A program made the position numbers and the translations under genes. Below the pieces are notes generated by a model. It did no database searches, had not been told where the DNA came from, and saw only the letters and a program-made list of their open reading frames with translations. DNA of 64,000 nt, from assembly GCA_029260965.1 (NCBI GenBank), contig JAJDCG010000001.1:312012-376011 (forward strand). The letters run 5' to 3'. The stretch comes from Candidatus Levyibacteriota bacterium. GTDB taxonomy: Bacteria > Patescibacteriota > Microgenomatia > Levybacterales > UBA12049. Shown in pieces: positions 8,556 through 54,921 of this stretch (position 1 is the first letter of the stretch; each line of letters starts with the position of its first letter).

Positions 8556-11522
8556 TTAATAATCTTTAAAAGTTTTTTTATATTGATTTTTTGCGTTATT
8601 AAGCTTTATGTTTACTATTTTCTTTCCCGATAAGCCTTTTATTATTATTTCAGGTTTTTTTGTAACTGTTCCAATTTGTTTTATTTTATTTCCACTCATT
8701 GTCTTTTCAAATGCTTTTTTATTTTTGGGTGCGATTGATATTAGAATTCTGCCTTGGCTTTCTGAAAAAAGAGCCAGATCATTTCTTGTGATGCTACCTG
8801 GAAGATTTTCAAGTGACACATCAACACCCAGCATCCCACCAATTGATTTTTTGGCAATAGCAACAGCCAGACCGCCTTTGCCTATGCTGATACTTGATGC
8901 GATCAGTTCTTTTTGAATTGCTTTGTAGAAATCTTTGTACATTTTAAAATTCTTTTTTGTATTTACAATTGGTGTTTTCGTACTGCTGACATTCTTCATA
9001 GATAAATACTCGGATCCTCCCAGCTCATCAAAAGTTTCACCTAGGATATAAATCAAATCATTTTCCTTTTTTGCATCAAGAGAAACTGTTTTGTTTATAT
9101 CCTCAATAACACCAATTGATGAGATCAGAAGGGTTGGGGGAATTGTGACTTTTACTGGTTTGCTGTTTTTGTCAAAACCGTTGAATTCATTAAACATGCT
9201 GTCTTTTCCTGAAATGTAGGGAGTTTGATAATCAACTGCAGTGTCATAGCATGCTTTGGCTGCCATTTTTAGTTGAAAAAGCCTTTGGGGGGTATTGCTT
9301 TCTGTCCAGCAAAAATTATCAAGCAAAGCGATATAGTCAGGATTGCCACCTATTGCAACTGCATTGCGAACTGCTGTATCTATACTTGCTGCAGCCATAG
9401 CATAAGGATTTATGTCAGAGTAGTTTGGATAAAGAGCTTGAGACATCACAACGCCTCTTTGAGACTGAAGAACTGGACGGAAAACAGACGCTTCTGAGTT
9501 TACTCGACCTGATCCCTGGAGTGGCCCGAGGACTGCACCTCCGAGCACTATGTGATCGTACTGGCTAGAGATGAATTCAATGCTGGTTATGTTTAATCTT
9601 GCAAGCATCTGAGAAACAGACATGTTTAGATTCACATCTGTTGGTATTGTTGCCTGGTGCTTGTTGTTTGTTGTTTTGTCAGAAATCATCTTGCGTTGGG
9701 GTAATCCGTCGTGGAGAAATTTCATATCAATATCGAGAATTGTTTTGTTTTTGTATTTTACAATTCCTTTTTTTGAGTTGGTAAATTTACCAATTATCGT
9801 TGCTTCAACGCCTCGTCTTTTCATAAGGGAGTTAAATTTAACCCAGTTTTTTTCTGGAACAGCAAGGGTCATTCTTTCTTGAGATTCTGATATCCAGATT
9901 TCCCAAGGGTCCAGGCCCTGGTATTTGAGTGGGGTTTTTTCAAGATCGAGTACAAATCCTCCTGACTCTTTTGCCATTTCTGAAACAGAGCAAGACAGTC
10001 CTCCTGCTCCATTATCAGTTATGCTGCTGTAGAGAAGTTGATCTCTTGCTTCATTTATAATTGCGTCGCTTAATTTTTTTTGTGTGATAGGATCACCGAT
10101 CTGGACTGCTGCTGCTGGGCTTTTAGTGTTTAGGCTTTCTGAAGAAAAGGTTGCTCCGTGCACACCGTCTTTTCCGACTCTTCCACCGATCATGACTATC
10201 AGGTCACCAGGTTGAGCATTTTTGATGTGTGAGGGTTTATTTTTTATTTTTTTGGGAATAAGACCTATTGTTCCCGCAAAGACAAGCGGTTTTCCTCTGT
10301 AGCCCTCATGGAAATAAACAAATCCCTGAGGTGTTGGGATTCCTGATTGATTACCACCTGCATTTATTCCAGCAATAACCCCATCCATAATTCTGCGGGA
10401 TGAGAGCATTTTTTGAGATTTATTTTTATTTCTATATAAAGGTATGTCTATTGCAGGATCTGCAAGGCAGAATCCATAAAAATTTGCAACCGGTTTGGCT
10501 CCAAGTCCAAATCCCAGTGTGTCGCGATTGACACCTACTATTCCAGTTATTGCTCCGCCAAATGGATCAAGAGCTGATGGGCTGTTGTGTGTTTCGACTT
10601 TATGAGTGATTAAATAATTTTCATCAAACGAAATGCCACCTGAATTGTCAGTGAATACTGATACGCAAAAATCTTTCTTTCCTTTAATTTTCCTTATTTT
10701 TTCAGTTGCGCCCTTGATGTAGGTTTTATATAGCCCATTTTTAATATTGTCGATTGGATCATTAAAAATAGTGTGCTTACAATGCTCAGACCATGTTTGG
10801 GCAAGTGATTCCAGCTCTATATCAGTTGGGCTTCTTCCAAGTTTTTTAAAATATTTTTGAATGGTTTTCATGAATGAAAGATCAAGTGCTAGGGGGCCAC
10901 GAGTTGTTCCGTCCTGGTTTTGGATTCCATTTTTTCCTATTTTTGCTAGCTCTTCATCGCTGATATTTAGATTTATCTCAATGACTTTTGGTTGATGCTT
11001 TATATCTACTTTTGGAACGAATAAATCCATTCCGCCGTCTTTTAGGAATTGCTGATAGCTCTTGATGTGGGCTCTCTGGATAAGAGGATTGTAAAGAGTT
11101 AGCGATATTTCTTTTGCGTCTTTTTCAGACACTTTGCCTGTCAAAAAGGTTACTTGAGACGAGTAGACATCTTCACCGTTCCTAAATTTTGTTTTTAGAC
11201 TATCTTCAATTATTTCTTTTGCAGTATGTCCGATGTTGTCTGTAACTCCAGGTAAAAATCCAATCTCAATTGCAAAGGTGAATTTTTTAGGAGGTGTAAA
11301 TCTAGCTTTTTCTGTTTGAAAGACAACTGATTGGGTTAGGGGATTTGATAGTTTTTTCCCGATTGATATCAGTTGTTTATCATCTAGTTTTTTTGCAACA
11401 GTATAAATGTCATAGATCCAAAGATCTTTTATTTTTTTAAATCCCTGATTTTTCAGTTTATCGATACGATTTTTGGCTCTGGTATCAAAAACATTTGTAA
11501 TTATTCCAATTCTTGCTGTCAT
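8556..11522 (-). CDS. purL: FGAM synthase synthetase subunit with a fused large-PurL-type (PurS-like) N-terminal domain
   Basis: 988 aa. Residues ~200-250 (GRSPTDIELESLAQTWSEHCKHTIF) match the linker/start of the FGAM-synthetase domain in single-chain large PurL (cf. E. coli ..[25 protein letters not shown]). The ~200 aa before it correspond to the PurS-like N-domain. There is no glutaminase domain (PurQ is separate). Confidence 0.85.
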   Translation of the reverse strand: MTARIGIITNVFDTRAKNRIDKLKNQGFKKIKDLWIYDIYTVAKKLDDKQLISIGKKLSNPLTQSVVFQTEKARFTPPKKFTFAIEIGFLPGVTDNIGHTAKEIIEDSLKTKFRNGEDVYSSQVTFLTGKVSEKDAKEISLTLYNPLIQRAHIKSYQQFLKDGGMDLFVPKVDIKHQPKVIEINLNISDEELAKIGKNGIQNQDGTTRGPLALDLSFMKTIQKYFKKLGRSPTDIELESLAQTWSEHCKHTIFNDPIDNIKNGLYKTYIKGATEKIRKIKGKKDFCVSVFTDNSGGISFDENYLITHKVETHNSPSALDPFGGAITGIVGVNRDTLGFGLGAKPVANFYGFCLADPAIDIPLYRNKNKSQKMLSSRRIMDGVIAGINAGGNQSGIPTPQGFVYFHEGYRGKPLVFAGTIGLIPKKIKNKPSHIKNAQPGDLIVMIGGRVGKDGVHGATFSSESLNTKSPAAAVQIGDPITQKKLSDAIINEARDQLLYSSITDNGAGGLSCSVSEMAKESGGFVLDLEKTPLKYQGLDPWEIWISESQERMTLAVPEKNWVKFNSLMKRRGVEATIIGKFTNSKKGIVKYKNKTILDIDMKFLHDGLPQRKMISDKTTNNKHQATIPTDVNLNMSVSQMLARLNITSIEFISSQYDHIVLGGAVLGPLQGSGRVNSEASVFRPVLQSQRGVVMSQALYPNYSDINPYAMAAASIDTAVRNAVAIGGNPDYIALLDNFCWTESNTPQRLFQLKMAAKACYDTAVDYQTPYISGKDSMFNEFNGFDKNSKPVKVTIPPTLLISSIGVIEDINKTVSLDAKKENDLIYILGETFDELGGSEYLSMKNVSSTKTPIVNTKKNFKMYKDFYKAIQKELIASSISIGKGGLAVAIAKKSIGGMLGVDVSLENLPGSITRNDLALFSESQGRILISIAPKNKKAFEKTMSGNKIKQIGTVTKKPEIIIKGLSGKKIVNIKLNNAKNQYKKTFKDY

Positions 11523-25061: not shown

Positions 25062-25092
25062 AGAAAAACCCCTCACCTGATCAGGTGAGGGG
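25062..25092 (-). terminator. Perfect 10-bp palindromic hairpin (CCCCTCACCT GATC AGGTGAGGGG) with a T-run on the minus strand
   Basis: Forward 25069-25092. The minus strand reads hairpin then TTTTTCTTG (forward A-run 25064-25068). It sits directly 3' of the tiny K-rich ORF. Confidence 0.45.
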
Positions 25093-25100
25093 TTAATAGG

Positions 25101-28757: not shown

Positions 28758-30733
<1,976 letters not shown>

Positions 30734-30755
30734 CTGCTTTATTTTTGCCTCCAGT

Positions 30756-30782
30756 TTATCACTCGGATAATCTGTATGCTAA
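30756..30782 (-). promoter_or_regulatory. CIRCE-like inverted repeat (HrcA operator candidate) upstream of groES
   Basis: The minus strand reads TTAGCATAC-N9-GAGTGATAA, against the consensus TTAGCACTC-N9-GAGTGCTAA (14/18 matches, correct 9-nt spacer). It lies 23-49 nt upstream of the groES ATG. Confidence 0.45.
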
Positions 30783-30870
30783 TTTTTAACACAACAACCT
30801 GTTTTTTGTCAAGGCCTTGTTGTTTTATCTTCTGCTTGACAGGCGCATTTTTCTTCTATACGATAAAATT

Positions 30871-32028
30871 ATGCATGGAAAAATAAACGGTAAGAAAGCC
30901 TTACTGATAGGTTTTATCGTGGTTTTATTAATTGGTATACCCCTTACCATATATCTATTGCAGCAGCAGCAGGATGCTCGTTCCCGCGCCCAGAAGTCCA
31001 CAAATATTAATTTCTCACCTGACTCCTCAGCCTCAAATCCTATCCAAGCAAGTGTGGGTGATGAGATCGCTCTTGATATTGTTGTTAATCCAGGTTCCAA
31101 TCTTGTTTCTTTTGTGAGACTGGAGGTTCAATACGATTCCGAGAAGCTTGCAACTGCTTCAGCGCAAGCTTTTCAGCCAGATACAACGATATTCACCGTC
31201 CAAGATGGACCGATATACTCACCGGGAAAGATAGAGGTTTCTCTTTCAGCAGGTCCTGATCCCACAAAGGCAATCCAGACAGCTACAAAAATAGCTACTG
31301 TTAACTTTAGGGCCATAGCGAATACACCAGATGGTGCACCTACTCTTGTGTCATATGGTGTGACAACTCAGGTGCTTTCAATTGGGTCAAGCGACGAGGC
31401 ATCAGAAGATGTTCTTTCGTCAACAAGTCCTGCTGCAATTGTGATAGGTGGTCCTGGTCCAACTGATCCATTGCCTACTACAGAACCAACACCTACAGTT
31501 GAACCGACACCTGAGCCGACTACCGAGCCAACTCCGACACCTGAGCCGACTGGTCCAGGCGTAACTAACGAATCACCTGTATGTAGTCAGTTAGCTGTTG
31601 ATCGCGATCCAAATGGGGCTGCTCCTTTGGCGATTACATTTACAGCGATTGGCTCAGACACAGACGGTACTGTGTCAAGTGTTACGTTTAACTTTGGTGA
31701 TGGTCAGGTGAGTGATGTGACAACAGGTGGTGGTGTAGGAACGGCATCAGTTAGTGCGCAGCTTTCACATACATATAATAGCGCTGGTACATTTCAGGCA
31801 ACAGCTGTTATGACAGATAACAACGGTGGTGTATCAGGATCAGGCTCTTGCACACAGACGGTCAGTGTTACAGGTGGCGGAGGAGCAAACCCCACAACAG
31901 TAGTTGTTAATCCAACTGGAGTACCTGTTGAATTGCCTCCAACCGGTGCGACAGAGAATGCTATAGCACTGGGTGCAATACTTATGACTTTCATTATCGG
32001 TGGAGCATTTATTTTCTTCCTTCTCTAG
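30871..32028 (+). CDS. Cell-surface protein with a Pro/Thr-rich linker and an LPxTG-like C-terminal sorting signal
   Basis: ATG at 30871 (the track start is TTG). It has a signal/TM, Ig-like-looking domains, a TEPTPTVEPTPEPT linker, then ELPPTG followed by a hydrophobic tail. Confidence 0.55.
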   Translation: MHGKINGKKALLIGFIVVLLIGIPLTIYLLQQQQDARSRAQKSTNINFSPDSSASNPIQASVGDEIALDIVVNPGSNLVSFVRLEVQYDSEKLATASAQAFQPDTTIFTVQDGPIYSPGKIEVSLSAGPDPTKAIQTATKIATVNFRAIANTPDGAPTLVSYGVTTQVLSIGSSDEASEDVLSSTSPAAIVIGGPGPTDPLPTTEPTPTVEPTPEPTTEPTPTPEPTGPGVTNESPVCSQLAVDRDPNGAAPLAITFTAIGSDTDGTVSSVTFNFGDGQVSDVTTGGGVGTASVSAQLSHTYNSAGTFQATAVMTDNNGGVSGSGSCTQTVSVTGGGGANPTTVVVNPTGVPVELPPTGATENAIALGAILMTFIIGGAFIFFLL

Positions 32029-32126
32029 GTCTTTTATCCTTCTGGTTAAAATGCGGGAATATACTGAAGTTATTTGAATTTGTGATTTTGCAAAAATTTT
32101 CTGGGTTTTCGAAGCTCTTAGTAAAC

Positions 32127-33857
32127 TTATTTCCCGTCACTGATCATGGAGAAGAGAGCGCTTTGAGATAATTGGACCTTTCCTGTTGTTACCATTTTCT
32201 TTTTGCCCTTTTTTTGTTTATCAAGAAGCTTGTTTTTGCGGGTTACGTCTCCACCATAGAGCTTGGCAGTTACGTCTTTTCTGTATGGAGATATTTCCTC
32301 TCTAGCAACAATATTCCCATTTATTACAGCTTGAATTATTTGTTTGAATTGTTGCCGATCTAGTGATTTTTTTAATTTTTCAGCCTTGGATCGCGCTACA
32401 TAAATACCTTCGTCTTTATAAACCAGTTCTGATAGGACGTCGATTGGGGTTCCATTTATTTGGATCTCAAGTTTGACCATGTTAGCTTTTTTATAGTCAG
32501 TTAGTGTGTAATCAATGCTGCCGTATCCTGCTGTAGCTGATTTGACCTCTGCAGAGAGACCACGAATAAACATAGAATAAGGCATTTCATATGAGAGCAC
32601 AGCATATGCCTCGTGATATTTGATATCGATAAGATGTCCCTTCTTGCCCTGTGCAACAGTCATTATTGACCCTACATGTTCTGCTGGTGTGAAGATCTCA
32701 ATAAACATATACGGTTCATAAATATCCTCTCCCCTGTATTCATAGAGCACCTGTGGCATGGTTAGGAGGAGGTCAAGTTCGTATTCCTTCTCAAGCCTTT
32801 CCTTGACAATGTCAGCATGCAGTAGCCCTAGGAATCCGACGCGAAATCCAGATCCGAGATAGGCAGAGTATTCCTCAGAATAGGTAAGTGAGGTGTCGTT
32901 GAGAGTGAGTTTGCCCAGTGCTTCGCGTAAGTCTACAAATTTATCGGAGTCTTTGGGATAGAGTCCAAAAAAGACCATGGATTGAGGAAGTTGATAGCCG
33001 GATAGAGGTTCTGTTTTTACGTTGGCGTGAACTATCGTGTCACCCACTCTGGCCTGTCGGATATCCTTGATAGATCCGACTATGTATCCAATCTCTCCTG
33101 TTGAAAGCTTTTCACTGCTTTTGAGAAAAGGGGTAAAGATGCCTACTTCGGTTGCATCTGCTTTGGCTTTATTTTGGAAAAACTCAATTTTTTCTCCTTT
33201 TTTTATTTCTCCGTCTACAACTCGCACATACGCAATTACACCACGATATTCATCATATACTGCATCAAAAATAAGCGCACGTAGTGGCGCATCGGGTTTT
33301 CCCTGTGGGGGAGGTATTTTTTCAACTATTTTTTCAAGAAGTTTTTCTACGTTTTCGCCTGTTTTTGCAGAAATGCTGAGTATTTCCGACTCTTCAAATC
33401 CTAGATCAACAAGCTCTTTTTTGATGAGTTTTGTTTCTGCATTGGGCATGTCAATCTTATTGAGTACAGGTATCATGGTGAGTCCGAGTTTTTTAGCAAC
33501 TTGAAAATGCGCGACAGTTTGAGCTTGTATGCCTTGTGTTGCATCAACCAGTAGCACTGCTCCTTCGCAAGCTGCTAGAGTGCGAGATACTTCATAAGAA
33601 AAATCAACATGACCTGGGGTATCTATCAGGTTTAGGATATAGGTTGTGGGATGTAGGGTGTAGTGCATCCGAACTGGTGCGAGTTTGATGGTTATTCCTC
33701 GTTGACGGCTAATGACATTTTGATCCAGAAATTGCTCTTGCAATTTATCCTTGGCAATTGTATGGGTTATCTCCAGTAGTCTGTCTGACAAGGTTGATTT
33801 TCCATGATCAACGTGTGCAATAATAGCAAAATTCCTTATAAGATCCTGATCTTTCAT
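32127..33857 (-). CDS. lepA: Elongation factor 4 (LepA)
   Basis: G-domain (AHVDHGKST, DTPGHVDF, NKID) and the LepA-specific C-terminal domain; 576 aa. Confidence 0.92.
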   Translation of the reverse strand: MKDQDLIRNFAIIAHVDHGKSTLSDRLLEITHTIAKDKLQEQFLDQNVISRQRGITIKLAPVRMHYTLHPTTYILNLIDTPGHVDFSYEVSRTLAACEGAVLLVDATQGIQAQTVAHFQVAKKLGLTMIPVLNKIDMPNAETKLIKKELVDLGFEESEILSISAKTGENVEKLLEKIVEKIPPPQGKPDAPLRALIFDAVYDEYRGVIAYVRVVDGEIKKGEKIEFFQNKAKADATEVGIFTPFLKSSEKLSTGEIGYIVGSIKDIRQARVGDTIVHANVKTEPLSGYQLPQSMVFFGLYPKDSDKFVDLREALGKLTLNDTSLTYSEEYSAYLGSGFRVGFLGLLHADIVKERLEKEYELDLLLTMPQVLYEYRGEDIYEPYMFIEIFTPAEHVGSIMTVAQGKKGHLIDIKYHEAYAVLSYEMPYSMFIRGLSAEVKSATAGYGSIDYTLTDYKKANMVKLEIQINGTPIDVLSELVYKDEGIYVARSKAEKLKKSLDRQQFKQIIQAVINGNIVAREEISPYRKDVTAKLYGGDVTRKNKLLDKQKKGKKKMVTTGKVQLSQSALFSMISDGK

Positions 33858-34129
33858 TGCATCATTTTAGCTTATTGATAAGTGTTTAGCAAAACCTCCA
33901 ATTGTAATTGACTTTTATCGTTCCCGTTTGCTACCATGAACCTCAAGAACCCGCTTTTGTGTGGTTTGGGTTGTGCTTACAGTAATTAGTACAGCTTGCA
34001 CTTTAACAAGGCATACAAGAAATTTTGGAAGAAATTATTTGTATTCTTTCAATCCGGTACAGCAGGTACGAGTGGGCAATTTGCTTGTCCTTTGGTATCT
34101 GTTGTATTGGAAAAGAAAGGAGAACTGAA

Positions 34130-34423
34130 ATGCACGAAGATAACAAGATGGAACTCTCAGAAAAGATTGCGATCCTTTGCGTTGTGCTCCTAATTATTGC
34201 AGCTTATGCATACTCCTATGCTCCCTGGCTGAGCTGGATAGCGTTGGTGCTAGTAACTGTCACGGCTATTGTGACTGGCTTACTCCTCGTAAATGACGAG
34301 CTTGGGCAGTGGCTCATGGGACTCAAACCCCAGGACTATCCTCAGTGTCCCGACTGCAAATATCGTAATTCAAAAGATGAGATGTTCTGCAATAGATGTT
34401 ACAGATCGTTTTTAAACTGGTAG
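34130..34423 (+). CDS. Small membrane protein with a C-terminal zinc-ribbon (CPDC...CNRC)
   Basis: AAAGGAG SD 7 nt upstream of ATG 34130 (the track start at 34025 is TTG). Two TM helices then a CxxC-X12-CxxC motif. Local GC is elevated (~46%). Confidence 0.45.
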   Translation: MHEDNKMELSEKIAILCVVLLIIAAYAYSYAPWLSWIALVLVTVTAIVTGLLLVNDELGQWLMGLKPQDYPQCPDCKYRNSKDEMFCNRCYRSFLNW

Positions 34424-34447
34424 GCCATCAACCAGGAGGACATGGGA

Positions 34448-34567
34448 ATGAGAAAACAACTTAAGGATCTGTCTTCGAGCGAGATTGTGCTCCTAGGGTT
34501 TCTTGCTTGTTGCGTTGTAGTAGCGGCTGCCATGGCGCTTTCAAGCATCATCGCTTCGTTCCGCTAA
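34448..34567 (+). CDS. Candidate 39-aa hydrophobic peptide (MRKQLKDLSSSEIVLLGFLACCVVVAAAMALSSIIASFR)
   Basis: AGGAGGA SD 7 nt upstream of ATG 34448; single TM; too short for the ORF track. Confidence 0.3.
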   Translation: MRKQLKDLSSSEIVLLGFLACCVVVAAAMALSSIIASFR

Positions 34568-34711
34568 GCAAAACACCAGAGTGGGAGTTGGGTGATAACA
34601 CTCAAAAGCGAAAGCTTTCCGCAATCCGGCGGGCTCCGTTGGGGACCAATAATAATTTCTCCTAGAAAGGACAGATTATCGTATACGATTTTTGGGTTTA
34701 CCGAAATGAGG

Positions 34712-34857
34712 TAGGCATACAAGATGTTGACGATAACTCGTCTTAAGATTTGGATATACCTGGAAAGAAAAGACTTCAGCAATTACGCGCTGAATTTTCT
34801 CTTCTTGGCTTTATGCCTTCTTCCGGAGTTTTCCGAATCTCATCTTGTATGCCTATT
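34712..34857. repeat. 15-bp perfect inverted repeat (TAGGCATACAAGATG) flanking a 116-nt core, with a T7 run after the 3' arm: structured ncRNA or MITE-like element
   Basis: Arms at 34712-34726 and 34843-34857 (reverse complement). A third partial copy, AGGCATACAAGA, is at 34009-34020. An internal hairpin TTCAGC-N8-GCTGAA is present, and TTTTTTT lies at 34861-34867. Confidence 0.4.
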
Positions 34858-34899
34858 TCATTTTTTTATCAATCTGGTTTGGTAAGATGGGTGAAGTAG

Positions 34900-35517
34900 T
34901 TATTTACCTCTAGGGATAGGAGGTTTGGGTGGATTTTTCATTGCACCCAAAACTTCTGCTACAAGTTTTGTGGTTTCAGTTCTGCCTTTGGGGGATGTAC
35001 CGATGTTAGATCCATTTAAACCACCAGCTGATCTTGCACGATAGCTTATAAATCCTTGCTTGCCCTCTTCATCGGTAATAACATGTGCCGTAGCAAAATT
35101 ATGTGTTTTCTCCACCTTCCTTATTACACCCTCATCCTCAAATAGTATTTCTTCTGTTCCACCTCTTTTTGATACAGATGCTGTTTTTCTATCTCTCCGA
35201 CCCGTTTCTAGATTTTGGAAGCTGCCCATAGTAGCTTCATATGTTAGTTCATCCCTTCTTAGCGTAAGGCTTGTAACCGCATGATTATTTGTTTTGTCCC
35301 ATTTAAGTTTTGCATCTCGGGTAGGAGGGTTGGACATACCTTCTGATACTAATTCTATGATTTCCTCGGCAGCTTGTAGAGCTTCATCCTCTGGGAGTTG
35401 GTCATGACCTAGCGACTCAAGTTCTGGAATAACTCCATCGCTATATTTTTCTCCTGCTTTTCTAATTGCTTGAATTAGGTTTTCTGCACCCGTAAGCGCG
35501 TGTTCCACACTTGTCAT
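34900..35517 (-). CDS. Hypothetical protein (205 aa, acidic N-terminal half, basic Pro-rich C-terminus)
   Basis: Clean ORF with no domain I can recognise. Confidence 0.45.
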   Translation of the reverse strand: MTSVEHALTGAENLIQAIRKAGEKYSDGVIPELESLGHDQLPEDEALQAAEEIIELVSEGMSNPPTRDAKLKWDKTNNHAVTSLTLRRDELTYEATMGSFQNLETGRRDRKTASVSKRGGTEEILFEDEGVIRKVEKTHNFATAHVITDEEGKQGFISYRARSAGGLNGSNIGTSPKGRTETTKLVAEVLGAMKNPPKPPIPRGK

Positions 35518-35575: not shown

Positions 35576-36505
35576 TCAAGATTTATCTGAAAAATCATCT
35601 GGATTTAGTTGCGTAAAATCAATTTTGATCTGTGATTCGCTAAACAATACATCAGGTGGTATTCTTCTAATTTCCATTGGTGGTTCTTCATCCATTTCTT
35701 TTAGGGTTGCAATTTCCTCAGCAATTTTTCTTTCATGGTATTGAATTGTTTCTGGTCCTAGCTCTAAGATTACAGCTGAGACTACAGTGCTAGCAATATC
35801 AAGCATTTTGTCGCCAACATCTTTTTTGGATAATTTTAAATCCTCTAGAGCAGTTTCTACAAAAATATCAGGCCCAAAATATCTTTTATATCTTTTTTCA
35901 TAGTGACTTTGTTCAAGTCTTTTATCATCTCCAAAATTATCCCACGACACTATCATCTCAGTCATACCTGCAACTGCAAGAGCCAGATGTGATAGTTCAT
36001 AGCTTAATTTGTATCCTTTATGGGGATGATAAGGATTGGGATTTTGGAATGTGTCAAAAATATCTGCTTTTACTTCTTGAGTAAATAGGGAATCAGGACT
36101 CTCTACTATTTCCATGCTTCTACGCAAACTGTCTGCTAAATCAAGCGACCAGGAGAGTCCTCCAATGGTTACTGTTTCGACTTGATAGTGATTTCCATAT
36201 TTTTTTCTTAATCTAGCATCTTTCTCTTCTTGCAATCTCTGCTCCATTGCGTCTATTGCTTTTTCTTCAATATCGCGAACAGCCTGTGGTCTGTGAGTGG
36301 CAATAGCTAACTGCGTAGAGTATTTAACTAATTTTAATGCTTCAGGTTTTTCTTTTGTGGGATCAATTCCAGCTAGTGTAAAAGCGCGGTCAATAAATCT
36401 CTGAGGAGGAACATGTTCAAAAACACATTCAGTTTCGCTATAAAACCATTGTCTCTCTGGTTCTTTAAGGCCATCTTGATTTCGTTTGGGTACTTCTTTG
36501 CTCAT
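35576..36505 (-). CDS. Hypothetical protein (309 aa)
   Basis: Clean ORF 43 nt downstream of tsaE on the same strand; no recognisable domain. Confidence 0.5.
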   Translation of the reverse strand: MSKEVPKRNQDGLKEPERQWFYSETECVFEHVPPQRFIDRAFTLAGIDPTKEKPEALKLVKYSTQLAIATHRPQAVRDIEEKAIDAMEQRLQEEKDARLRKKYGNHYQVETVTIGGLSWSLDLADSLRRSMEIVESPDSLFTQEVKADIFDTFQNPNPYHPHKGYKLSYELSHLALAVAGMTEMIVSWDNFGDDKRLEQSHYEKRYKRYFGPDIFVETALEDLKLSKKDVGDKMLDIASTVVSAVILELGPETIQYHERKIAEEIATLKEMDEEPPMEIRRIPPDVLFSESQIKIDFTQLNPDDFSDKS

Positions 36506-36548: not shown

Positions 36549-36989
36549 TCAGCTTAACTCTATTTTTCTCTTATCATCTTCTAGATATTCAAAATGTATG
36601 TCAATTTTGTGCTTTGGTAAAATTTTATCAATTTTTTCAGGCCATTCAATGGCAATGATAGATTCTGGATCCTTGATGATTTCCTCTAAACCAAGACCCT
36701 GGATGTCTTTTTCAGATTCTATACGGTAGAGATCGATATGATAAAAGTGCTTGGTGCGTAGCGCGTTAGTGATAGTGGGAAGATTATATTTGCGGACTAT
36801 TATGAACGTGGGGGAAATCATGTGCTGCTTGATACCTAAACCCCGCGCCAGCCCTTGTACAAATGTTGTTTTGCCAGATCCGAGATTTCCCTCCAGGGTA
36901 ATTACGTCTCCTCCCTTGAGAGTATGGGCAATTTTTTCGCCGATTTTTTGTGTCTCTGTAAAGCTGTTTGAAAAGAAAGTTTTTGTCAT
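36549..36989 (-). CDS. tsaE: tRNA t6A37 biosynthesis ATPase TsaE (YjeE)
   Basis: Walker A GNLGSGKTTF and the YjeE-type switch region; 146 aa. Confidence 0.85.
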   Translation of the reverse strand: MTKTFFSNSFTETQKIGEKIAHTLKGGDVITLEGNLGSGKTTFVQGLARGLGIKQHMISPTFIIVRKYNLPTITNALRTKHFYHIDLYRIESEKDIQGLGLEEIIKDPESIIAIEWPEKIDKILPKHKIDIHFEYLEDDKRKIELS

Positions 36990-54303: not shown

Positions 54304-54304
54304 T

Positions 54305-54335
54305 CAAAAAAATCCCCCACCAGTAGGTGAGGGAT
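54305..54335 (-). terminator. Hairpin (ATCCCCCACC AGTA GGTGAGGGAT) with a T7 run on the minus strand; probably a bidirectional terminator
   Basis: Forward 54312-54335 stem; forward A7 at 54305-54311 gives TTTTTTT 3' of the hairpin on the minus strand. It follows the 49-aa zinc-ribbon gene and the plus-strand ArnT-like gene. Confidence 0.4.
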
Positions 54336-54389
54336 TTCCAGTTATTAGTTGTTCCCTGAAGTTATTTTAAACAACTTCAAAGAGATAAG

Positions 54390-54539
54390 TTAGTTTGCTC
54401 CTATTTTGTACATTCCTGTACCACAAACTGGACACTTACCCTTGGTAGCTGGTTTACCGTTTTTCATTGTTACGTCTTCTGCATTTTCAAAATCTCTTTT
54501 CGCTCTGCATTTTACGCAATAACCTACTTTTGCTGGCAT
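54390..54539 (-). CDS. 49-aa zinc-ribbon protein (MPAKVGYCVKCRAKRDFENAEDVTMKNGKPATKGKCPVCGTGMYKIGAN), DUF5679-like
   Basis: AAAGGAGGTGA SD 8 nt upstream of the ATG (54537-54539). CxxC...CPVC zinc ribbon; followed by a terminator. Below the ORF-track length cutoff. Confidence 0.5.
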   Translation of the reverse strand: MPAKVGYCVKCRAKRDFENAEDVTMKNGKPATKGKCPVCGTGMYKIGAN

Positions 54540-54588
54540 AGTTTTATTCACCTCCTTTCATATTTCTTTTATTTATCATGTTTCGTAT

Positions 54589-54864
54589 TTACAGAAAGAG
54601 TTTGATTAATACCTCAATCATCATGATTACGCCAGTGAAAACAACAGTTTTTCTAAGATCTTTTGTAAAGTCTCTACTATTCAGGGCCTTAGATTGACTA
54701 TCAGTAGGTGTATAACTAAAAGTAGGACTTTGAAATTCTGTTTGTGGTTGATGAGTGGTAAAGTGTTGTTTTTCCTGTGGAATTTGGGCAATTTGATAAT
54801 TCATAGCCTGCCGTTTAGTTTCGGCAAGAATTTTTTCTCTCCTGGTTTTTTTTCGTTTAGCCAT
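54589..54864 (-). CDS. Hypothetical 91-aa protein, basic N-terminus and C-terminal TM
   Basis: ORF only, with no clear SD. It lies 49 nt upstream of the zinc-ribbon gene on the same strand. Confidence 0.3.
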   Translation of the reverse strand: MAKRKKTRREKILAETKRQAMNYQIAQIPQEKQHFTTHQPQTEFQSPTFSYTPTDSQSKALNSRDFTKDLRKTVVFTGVIMMIEVLIKLFL

Positions 54865-54921
54865 GAGTTAGCCTAGATTACACTATTGACAGCTTCGGTG
54901 TCAAGAGGCTAATATAAATAA

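Follow-up and report, generated by a model that had tools for sequence, protein, structure and literature searches.

We interpret the interval that separates lepA from the next annotated gene as a foreign plus-strand unit, which lies at a synteny break, encodes two small membrane proteins (p97 and p41 or p39) and carries a big hairpin as terminator or 3' stabiliser; we give this reading a probability of roughly 0.45. The interval would be filled by one plus-strand transcription unit that was missed by the source annotation. A sequence-only reading of the locus had offered, among others, the remnant of a small mobile or toxin-like module, and this proposal is the most compatible with the foreign GC3, the strong SD sequences, the synteny break and the lack of homologues. 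The sequence features of the locus are real but fairly ordinary. Structures with their strand asymmetry, composition, the SD anomaly, missing homologues and the synteny break are observed, while transcription, termination, control of translation and acquisition are inferred. All positions, most of them collected in Table 1, refer to the window, i.e. the whole 64-kb stretch of DNA that was analysed.

Table 1. Features in and around the lepA-proximal segment, in window coordinates
Feature	Position	Strand	Basis
11-nt copy of the arm core inside lepA (codons Q-G-I-Q)	33525-33535	-	sequence search
Divergent lepA promoter-like site	33892-33864	-	consensus scan, prediction
Promoter-like site TTGACT-18-TACCAT, TG before -10	33908-33937	+	consensus scan, prediction
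12-nt exact copy of the 5'-arm core, AGGCATACAAGA	34009-34020	+	sequence search
Leader hairpin, 78 nt, 34 bp, 7 G.U	34044-34121	+	fold, pair list
SD of p97, AAAGGAG	34116-34122		
p97, 97-aa ORF, two predicted TM helices	34130-34423	+	ORF list, AF2, hydropathy
SD of p41/p39, AGGAGG	34434-34439		
p41/p39, single-TM peptide, 41 or 39 aa	34442 or 34448 to 34567	+	ORF list, hydropathy
G-rich spacer with several short hairpins, p41 stop to large hairpin	34568-34702	+	fold
Large branched hairpin	34703-34867	+	inverted-repeat search and fold; covariance model, Rfam
Closing helix of the large hairpin (RNA), 24 bp	34703-34726 with 34841-34864		
Perfect 15-nt arms, TAGGCATACAAGATG	34712-34726 and 34841-34855		
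Side hairpin of the large hairpin	34729-34742		
9-bp helix continuing the closing helix	34746-34754 / 34831-34839		
Inner hairpin	34775-34794		
T7 run	34861-34867		

Two small ORFs with atypical composition and SD sequences at a synteny break

The GC content reaches 0.45-0.48 over 34.1-34.7 kb, as had been read from the letters, and the 600-nt value of 0.458 belongs to the top 1.4% of the window. The range of 35-42% that had been given for the remaining sequence does not hold throughout, since GC peaks also occur at 31.3-31.8 kb (0.49-0.50) and at 37.2-37.5 kb (0.51). The anomaly in composition is real, and it is mainly an effect of the third codon position. GC3 amounts to 0.53 in p97 and 0.51 in p41, compared to 0.304 +/- 0.034 with a maximum of 0.395 in 55 neighbouring genes, which places both ORFs more than six standard deviations above the genes of the window. 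For p97 the values of GC1/2/3 are 0.48/0.35/0.53, i.e. GC1 and GC2 are gene-like and GC3 is shifted; the codon usage scores of p97 and p41 fall into the 1st-2nd percentile. An SD-like core of any kind precedes only 8 of the 55 window genes, while the SD sequences of p97 (7 nt before the ATG) and p41/p39 (8 nt before the second ATG) are strong and well spaced. Because codon composition and ribosome-binding signals are foreign to the genome, p97 and p41 may have been acquired horizontally or represent the remnant of a mobile element.

Both SD-led ORFs reported before, a 97-aa protein with two TM helices and a CPDC...CNRC motif and a 39-aa single-TM peptide, are present. Judged from its codon periodicity, the two TM helices and a CxxC-x10-CxxC motif, p97 looks coding. 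Kyte-Doolittle hydropathy gives two hydrophobic helices, and the AF2 model, which is confident for the TM helices only, places them at residues 6-30 and 32-54. The C-terminus reads CPDC-x10-CNRC, a pattern that appears in 414 of 200000 shuffles (p about 0.002), and p97 has a weak match to the DZR zinc ribbon (E 0.007). Coding is least certain for p41, which may be no gene at all. It begins 18-24 nt past the p97 stop and contains one TM segment with a maximum KD19 hydropathy of 2.88. By size and hydrophobicity p39/41 falls within the definition of type I toxins as membrane peptides of <60 aa (PMC8594479), for which p97 is too long. Translational coupling by a hairpin over the p41 SD was considered and dropped, since the fold is not significant (z -0.4). 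The products of the proposed unit would be p97, with two TM helices and a zinc-ribbon-like C-terminus, and p39/41 with its one TM helix.

Among 5.8 billion proteins no homologue was detected for either small ORF; for p97 this holds for the word-indexed search of that set and for an exhaustive phmmer search of 1.84 billion representatives. No family match was obtained for p41/p39 in Pfam, NCBIfam, PHROGs and PADLOC, and the same four resources gave no toxin family match for p41 or p97. In five start variants altogether, p97 and p41 are absent from the protein collection and the source annotation, in which all flanking genes are present.

Compared with three related genomes, in which murJ directly precedes lepA, a stretch of 5.1 kb is inverted here, and the segment adjoins the breakpoint. 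The only homologue of the neighbouring gene p309 lies beside a type IV secretion/conjugation cluster, which also fits a foreign origin. Searches of 80 lepA loci by blastn, nhmmer and tblastn found no part of the region; the closest of these loci, from a Levybacteria MAG, has 66% identity. The neighbouring gene p205 matched only itself in the protein search, and the AF2 model of p309 (pLDDT 47) is too poor for a fold comparison.

A leader hairpin and a large branched hairpin on the plus strand

Transcription of the unit would start at the promoter-like site near 33908-33937, with the first nucleotide predicted near 33944 and a leader of ~185 nt. Within this leader folds a hairpin that reaches a dG of -40.7 kcal/mol (z -5.9) on the plus strand and -18.6 kcal/mol (z -2.0) on the minus strand; at its base (GAAAGGA, 34115-34121) most of the p97 SD is engaged in pairing. 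As far as folding models can indicate, this strand specificity argues for selection on a plus-strand RNA, and the leader hairpin is the strongest new evidence for such an RNA. It would hold translation of p97 low until it is opened or cut. Strand asymmetry is also seen in the spacer behind p41, with a dG of -39.7 kcal/mol and a z of -2.4 on the plus strand compared to a z of -0.9 on the minus strand.

The perfect 15-bp inverted repeats that first drew attention to the locus are present, as are the inner hairpin and the T7 run, while the 15-nt arms measure 144 nt, not 146, from outer end to outer end. The repeat itself reaches further, to 23 nt with 91% complementarity (34704-34726 / 34841-34863), and as RNA it forms the 24-bp closing helix, which is continued by the 9-bp helix. 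In total the branched helix spans 162 nt and 62 bp. The dG of the plus-strand fold is -71.7 kcal/mol (z -9.1), a value equalled by none of 200 shuffles, versus -63.6 kcal/mol for the minus strand; the number of G.U pairs is 5 versus 2, and the closing helix has three imperfect positions, each of which is a G.U pair in the plus-strand RNA. The first four T of the T7 run pair with the stem base, and directly 3' of the helix the plus strand reads UUUCAUUUUUUU. A U tract is lacking on the minus strand; an A-rich stretch ahead of the 5' arm is the counterpart of the U tract at the other end. A 53-codon ORF inside the hairpin (34724-34885) was rejected for its poor codon score and a stop beyond the U tract, and no credible ORF is found within the 162-nt unit.

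This repeat is the strongest inverted repeat of the window, in which, by our estimate, chance would give ~0.02 perfect 15-nt inverted repeats with arms no more than 400 nt apart. In 1.09 Mb of other bacterial loci, a comparable inverted repeat turns up about every 45 kb, so this one is non-random yet not rare. Unlike the ORFs p97 and p41, the large hairpin has a native-like GC content of 0.38-0.39, equal to the genome mean, and therefore may not have come in together with them.

In the proposed unit, the 162-nt hairpin with its U-rich tail would act as intrinsic terminator and/or protect the 3' end of the transcript; it is probably also a barrier between the unit and the convergent p205-p309 genes, and would not be an independent sRNA gene. 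It lies in the convergent gap, 136 nt past the p41 stop and 36 nt past the p205 stop. With intrinsic terminators and protective 3' hairpins it shares the stable helix, ending at 34864 downstream of p41, the U-rich tail behind it and the location past the last gene of an operon, within a convergent gap. It differs from intrinsic terminators by being about tenfold larger and by lacking a U tract on the opposite strand, and in place of a compact stem of ~5-14 bp with a short loop and a G+C-rich base it has an A-U rich base beside the U run. The terminator scan did not call the large hairpin and flagged only the inner one at 34775-34794. Its branched size of 162 nt, the A-U rich base and the fact that terminator-like motifs show no enrichment in this genome count against a role as terminator.

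Copies of the repeat and other readings of the hairpin

The third partial copy of the arm that had been pointed out at 34009-34020 is exact over 12 nt; it falls within the predicted leader of 185 nt and matches the complement of the 3' arm at 34843-34854. A further copy, inside lepA, has 14 nt, ACAAGGCATACAAG, in common with the leader copy (34005-34018) and may be a coincidence in a conserved LepA motif. The likeness of the extra copies ends past the core of 11-14 nt, and in a simulation the probability of one or more 11-mer matches within +/-1.5 kb was 0.036, with two observed. A model of operon plus terminator leaves these additional 11-12-nt copies unexplained. We rejected the idea that the 12-nt direct repeats at 34009 and 34713 are the target-site duplication of a 704-bp insert, because the inverted repeat continues leftwards for 9 nt beyond the second copy and thus into the supposed insert.

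Bacterial MITEs, such as the Correia elements of Neisseria, RUP and ERIC, have lengths of 100-200 bp, terminal inverted repeats of 20-30 nt and intergenic locations near gene ends, and they may fold as long RNA hairpins that terminate transcription or get cut by RNase III. The large hairpin resembles them in size, terminal repeats and intergenic place near gene ends, so far in line with the MITE suggested from the sequence. It could accordingly be a single-copy MITE-like or IS-derived non-autonomous element, with the RNA fold as a by-product of the terminal repeats and the short copies at 34009 and 33525 as decayed ends or preferred targets. The format of such an element is typical (arms of 23-33 nt, size about 160 bp, no credible internal ORF), its GC content at the genome mean would suit a resident repeat, and a rearrangement breakpoint lies next door. 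However, the class is defined by multiple copies, and only one was seen: neither a sequence search nor the covariance model with filters off gave another copy in the 64-kb window of the 549-kb source contig, the covariance model gave none in 1.03 Mb from 85 related loci, viral, phage and plasmid collections had none either, and matches in metagenomes are at chance level. The metagenome scan for the two arms gave four loci (L081-L084), which we take as coincidence because ~0.7 chance hits are expected from the density of inverted repeats. L084 is a palindromic contig and probably an assembly artefact, and L081-L083 are one Bacteroidota locus, in which a susD terminator happens to share AAGGCATACAAGAA. 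Nor is there a convincing target-site duplication, since the candidate pair TTTACC and TTTATC is imperfect, offset by 1 nt on each side and at chance level. The limited likeness of the partial copies and the three G.U positions of the closing helix speak against a mobile repeat as well, and we regard it as unlikely.

The arm-bounded element thus turned out to be single-copy in the window, the related loci and the collections. By the refuting condition that came with the sequence-only reading (an arm confined to this place, here within the searched scope, and ORFs lacking conservation), both the MITE and an sRNA have lost weight. Together with a type I toxin-antitoxin module they are possible but unsupported.

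As a separately transcribed structured sRNA, for instance a regulator resembling a type I antitoxin, the hairpin would pair by its 3' arm UCUUGUAUGCCU with AGGCAUACAAGA in the p97-p41 leader and possibly with the lepA mRNA, and the hydrophobic peptide or peptides would be the toxic partner. The stable, U-tract-terminated fold is in agreement with this, and so is a leader segment 24 nt upstream of the SD-masking hairpin, which is apparently unpaired and exactly complementary over 12 nt. In the type I systems of tisB and zorO, too, the ribosome-binding site is sequestered and a single-stranded sRNA or standby site lies upstream of it (PMC7708055, PMC3919570). The size and hydrophobicity of p41 are those of type I toxins. 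But the consensus scan found no promoter-like site before 34703 and none inside the inverted-repeat segment, the proposed seed is hidden in the 24-bp helix, and the complementarity of just 12 nt is statistically modest. RNAduplex comparison of element and leader was uninformative, as shuffled sequences gave long unconstrained duplexes that were just as good. The missing toxin family match of p41 and p97 (Pfam, NCBIfam, PADLOC) and the Rfam result also argue against such an sRNA, which appears quite improbable to us.

The 4227 Rfam models, including those of 6S, SRP, RNase P and tmRNA, gave no match at gathering score in the whole window and nothing but miRNA/snoRNA noise at E <= 10 in 33700-35100, and ARAGORN detected no tRNA or tmRNA. 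This bears out the earlier impression that tmRNA, RNase P and SRP signatures are lacking, and it lends no support to the suggestion of a 6S-like or other known sRNA. 6S RNA has a similar length (160-190 nt) and its ends also form a long closing helix, whereas the large hairpin is a near-continuous rod with a side hairpin and without a large central bubble; the near-perfect 24-bp helix would suit RNase III rather than RNA-polymerase mimicry.

We give very little credence to a type I toxin-antitoxin-like module of a new family without sequence relatives, in which the -40 kcal/mol leader hairpin would act as lock on the ribosome-binding site of a normally silent mRNA for small membrane peptides, and a 165-nt RNA or the processed 3' end of this transcript would exert control by pairing of its arm with AGGCAUACAAGA in the leader. 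Known type I loci (hok/sok, tisB/istR-1, zorO/orzO, fst/RNAII) also consist of a gene for a small hydrophobic peptide, a stable leader structure over the ribosome-binding site and a nearby structured RNA with short complementarity to the leader, and fst/RNAII shares the convergent layout about a common hairpin. Here, however, the masked SD belongs to the 97-aa zinc-ribbon membrane protein and not to the short peptide, no separate antitoxin promoter was found, the complementarity is limited to 12 nt and no known toxin family matches. To date, type I systems have been recorded from Proteobacteria, Firmicutes and Tenericutes alone, with Cyanobacteria as a proposed addition (PMC12390103).

Inspection of the repeat ends for integron attC sites found no R''/R' core sites (RYYYAAC ... 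GTTRRRY), and for a retron msr-msd no reverse transcriptase follows downstream on the same strand, p205 and p309 being on the opposite strand and without RT domain. Finally, a function of the repeat as DNA, either as recombinase sites around a 114-bp invertible segment or as origin-of-transfer or hairpin site of a p309-related mobile element, might be imagined from the perfect 15-bp inverted repeats around a short segment, further core copies in both orientations within 1.3 kb and the only p309 homologue, which adjoins a type IV secretion/conjugation cluster, but is highly improbable in view of p205 and p309 without recombinase, relaxase or transposase domain, a segment without promoter-like site, 10 other scanned window genes that are housekeeping or without mobile-element or recombinase domain, and a segment length that is short for known invertible switches.

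Meaning for CPR genomes

The locus would matter more if the hairpin were a regulatory RNA or a toxin-control element: to our knowledge RNA-based toxin control has no description in CPR bacteria, and small peptides of CPR bacteria are unexplored. The foreign plus-strand unit that we prefer is useful for annotation and unsurprising. If it is the true reading, it adds one more case in which gene callers trained on the codon usage of the host miss small foreign membrane-protein genes in CPR bacteria, and reduced genomes that, as here, rarely use SD sequences or terminator hairpins can hold imported units with their own expression signals.

Genomic setting of the interval between lepA and p205

The source genome belongs to the Microgenomates group of the Patescibacteria/CPR; by lepA it is closest to a Candidatus Levybacteria MAG (66% identity) and to Patescibacteria MAGs. 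The public protein collection contains the flanking proteins as singletons, all from one 549,591-bp contig, whereas exact look-up with any plausible start codon retrieved neither p97 (97 aa) nor p41 (41 aa, or 39 aa from the second start). The source record thus leaves the 1,042-bp interval without annotation.

Three related Microgenomates genomes share the gene order rpsT-murJ-lepA-PKD protein-small ORF-p556, with 12-19 nt between the end of murJ and lepA. Relative to these, the block from lepA to p556 (28758-33857, including the PKD-domain protein and the small ORF) is inverted in the window, where murJ and p556 are just 9 nt apart at the left junction and the studied region starts exactly at the lepA end. 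Since the sequence beyond p556 in the relatives also has no counterpart within the window, the region lies at a lineage-specific rearrangement junction. Inside the block, the stretch 30440-30733, absent from the list of ORFs of 120 aa or more, is 71% conserved (tblastx) with L001 and the other relatives; it probably represents a genuine small gene that separates p556 from the PKD protein.

The convergent genes p205 and p309 show native codon usage, yet both are orphans. The predicted structure of p309 is too poor to use; its one distant homologue (P0005, 28% identity, E 1e-12; Logan contig L085, 7946-9007) shares the conserved motif YSTQLAIATHRPQ. P0005 directly follows a type IV secretion/conjugation-like cluster (L085 190-7768; TrbL, PrgI, TraC-like, VirB4-like, M23 peptidase, coupling protein), a neighbourhood that gives a hint, and no more, of mobile-element ancestry for p309. 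A run of small orphan genes comes after P0005.

Features of the studied interval and its surroundings (window positions)
Feature	Position	Strand	Remark
lepA	32127-33857	minus	left neighbour of the interval
fourth AGGCATACAAG copy	33525-33535	lepA strand	in lepA codons for conserved QGIQ motif
promoter-like site	33908-33937	plus	TTGACT-18-TACCAT, TG upstream
third arm copy	34009-34020		12 nt, in predicted leader
leader hairpin	34044-34121	plus	78 nt
p97	34130-34423	plus	AAAGGAG-7-ATG
p41/p39	34442 or 34448-34567	plus	AGGAGG-8-ATG
closing helix	within 34703-34864	plus	24 bp, RNA fold
perfect 15-nt inverted repeat	34712-34726 / 34841-34855
side hairpin, small	34729-34742	plus	RNA fold
continuation helix	34746-34754 / 34831-34839	plus	9 bp, RNA fold
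internal hairpin	34775-34794		part of branched tip
T7 run	34861-34867		overlaps helix end
p205	34900-35517	minus	right neighbour
p309	35576-36505	minus	right side, beyond p205
tsaE	36549-36989	minus	Pfam TsaE, E 1e-38
53-aa protein	54390-54551	minus	two CxxC pairs; in 54304-54921 gap
91-aa basic protein	54589-54864	minus	in 54304-54921 gap

Composition and coding potential of p97 and p39/41

The sequence-only reading had reported a GC rise over 34.1-34.7 kb, and 34100-34699 indeed reaches 0.458 (top 1.4% of 600-nt windows). The range of 35-42% given for the remainder does not hold, as 0.49-0.51 is reached in the Pro/Thr-linker regions (31.3-31.8 and 37.2-37.5 kb). The real anomaly sits in the third codon positions: GC3 is 0.526 in p97 and 0.513 in p41, compared to 0.304 +/- 0.034 (maximum 0.395) in 55 neighbouring genes, none of which contains a 97-codon window with a GC3 as high as that of p97. 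The shift is confined to GC3, GC1/GC2 of p97 being 0.48/0.35 versus 0.50/0.35 for window genes, as expected for a coding sequence derived from a higher-GC donor and not for a non-coding RNA. The codon-usage scores of p97 and p41 (1st-2nd percentile) count against gene status.

Both small ORFs carry the strong SD sequences ascribed to them, well spaced from the start codons, while any SD-like core is found in just 8 of the 55 window genes. Many window genes have a TATAAT-like hexamer ~6-12 nt before the ATG (e.g. 16890, 35517, 36505, 61871, 62645), suggesting widespread leaderless or very-short-leader mRNAs; the predicted lepA -10 element (TAAAAT, 33869-33864) would place the transcription start at the lepA ATG. 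The two transmembrane segments and the zinc-ribbon motif described for p97 were recovered as two strongly hydrophobic segments (AlphaFold helices 6-30 and 32-54, pLDDT 76-88) and CPDC-x10-CNRC. This motif uses four of the five cysteines and arose in 414 of 200,000 shuffles of the p97 residues; the DZR zinc-ribbon match is sub-threshold (E 0.007). A search of 5.8 billion clustered proteins and an exhaustive HMMER search against 1.84 billion representatives detected no p97 homologue. We conclude that p97 is probably a genuine gene, foreign and orphan, and that p39/41 is plausible but unproven as a gene. Two small ORFs also lie in the second-largest gap left by the listed ORFs of 120 aa or more (54304-54921), where RNA structure is not strong (z -1.5).

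The two hairpins and the search for relatives

The perfect inverted repeat, internal hairpin and T7 run described earlier are all present, and the repeat can be lengthened to 23 nt with 91% complementarity. The plus-strand RNA of 34703-34864 forms 62 bp (-71.7 kcal/mol, z -9.1), the minus strand being somewhat weaker (-63.6 kcal/mol, z -8.5). G.U pairs number five on plus versus two on minus, including all three imperfect closing-helix positions on the plus strand, but this bias taken alone is not significant. The repeat ranks first among inverted repeats of the window; in 1.09 Mb of other bacterial loci, perfect arms of at least 15 nt turn up about every 45 kb, and the class as such is common. 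Downstream of serS, a perfect 28-nt palindrome (25067-25094, AACCCCTCACCTGA/TCAGGTGAGGGGTT) runs into a T-rich tail when read on the minus strand. It is the only textbook intrinsic terminator observed; beyond it, terminator-like motifs show no enrichment relative to shuffles.

The leader hairpin, immediately 5' of p97, is strongly asymmetric: the plus strand folds at -40.7 kcal/mol (z -5.9), the minus strand at just -18.6 kcal/mol (z -2.0), and 7 of the 34 plus-strand pairs are G.U and thus C-A mismatches if read on the other strand. A DNA palindrome cannot produce this asymmetry, which is the best available sign of selection on a plus-strand RNA. At its base the hairpin pairs 34115-34121 (GAAAGGA), covering most of the p97 SD, and the promoter-like site would yield a leader of ~185 nt.

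Four copies of the 11-mer AGGCATACAAG lie in the window, all within 33525-34854, two of them as the arms of the inverted repeat; the previously noted third copy was found again. One such match within +/-1.5 kb has P = 0.036 in simulation, and two extra arm-core matches are unlikely to be due to chance (roughly 1e-3). Similarity among the copies stops at 11-14 nt. Complementarity of the leader copy to the 3' arm could allow RNA-RNA pairing, but the 24-bp helix sequesters that arm.

Rfam gave no match, and by its sequence the feature belongs to no known RNA family; no tRNA was found and, in agreement with the sequence-only reading, no tmRNA. None of 80 lepA loci from related genomes contains any part of the region, phage and plasmid collections gave no match, and neither did IMG/VR viral contigs for the arms, p97 and the p309 family. 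A covariance model built from the element, run on the window with filters off, recovered only the element itself, and it gave no hit across 1.03 Mb of fetched loci. A metagenome scan for both arm cores yielded four contigs, three of which represent one Bacteroidota locus (L081, L082, L083) whose susD terminator and nearby repeat have AAGGCATACAAGAA and nothing else in common with the window. With ~0.7 chance hits expected from inverted-repeat density, we treat these matches as coincidence. L084 (JAAUYH010116786.1) was rejected because its first part (1-420) is a near-perfect palindrome of ~400 bp, probably a fold-back artefact of assembly or library. In L081, the intergenic stretch that separates a dehydratase-like gene from susD (9805-9933) carries three AAGGCATACAAGAA copies, two direct and one inverted, sharing 14-17 nt with the window motif 34005-34021, a curious parallel in arrangement.

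The element is a singleton among the window, fetched loci and collections searched, and a MITE-like element with further copies outside the sequences searched is an unlikely reading.

A possible transcription unit

The feature is real and non-random, although a singleton without comparative support. The most economical reading, to which we assign a probability of about 0.45, is a single plus-strand unit with a foreign coding part. Transcription would run from the promoter-like site into a structured leader masking the p97 SD, and p97, p39/41 and a structured spacer would follow on the same transcript. The large hairpin with its U-rich tail would serve as terminator and/or 3' protector between the convergent genes. 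Composition and expression signals of the coding part are foreign.

An independent sRNA, possibly type I antitoxin-like, is improbable. The type I idea is attractive on three counts: the leader hairpin masks the p97 ribosome-binding site, a candidate single-stranded complementary site lies upstream, resembling those of tisB (PMC7708055) and zorO (PMC3919570), and a small hydrophobic peptide, part of the type I toxin definition (PMC8594479), is predicted. Type I systems are so far described from only a few phyla (PMC12390103). However, of the defining features, family homology was not found, and the antisense transcript and toxicity are putative. A recombination or transfer site at the DNA level is more doubtful still.

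We propose that the single plus-strand unit most likely represents a small-membrane-protein operon, acquired horizontally and missed by annotation, that is flanked by two long RNA hairpins.
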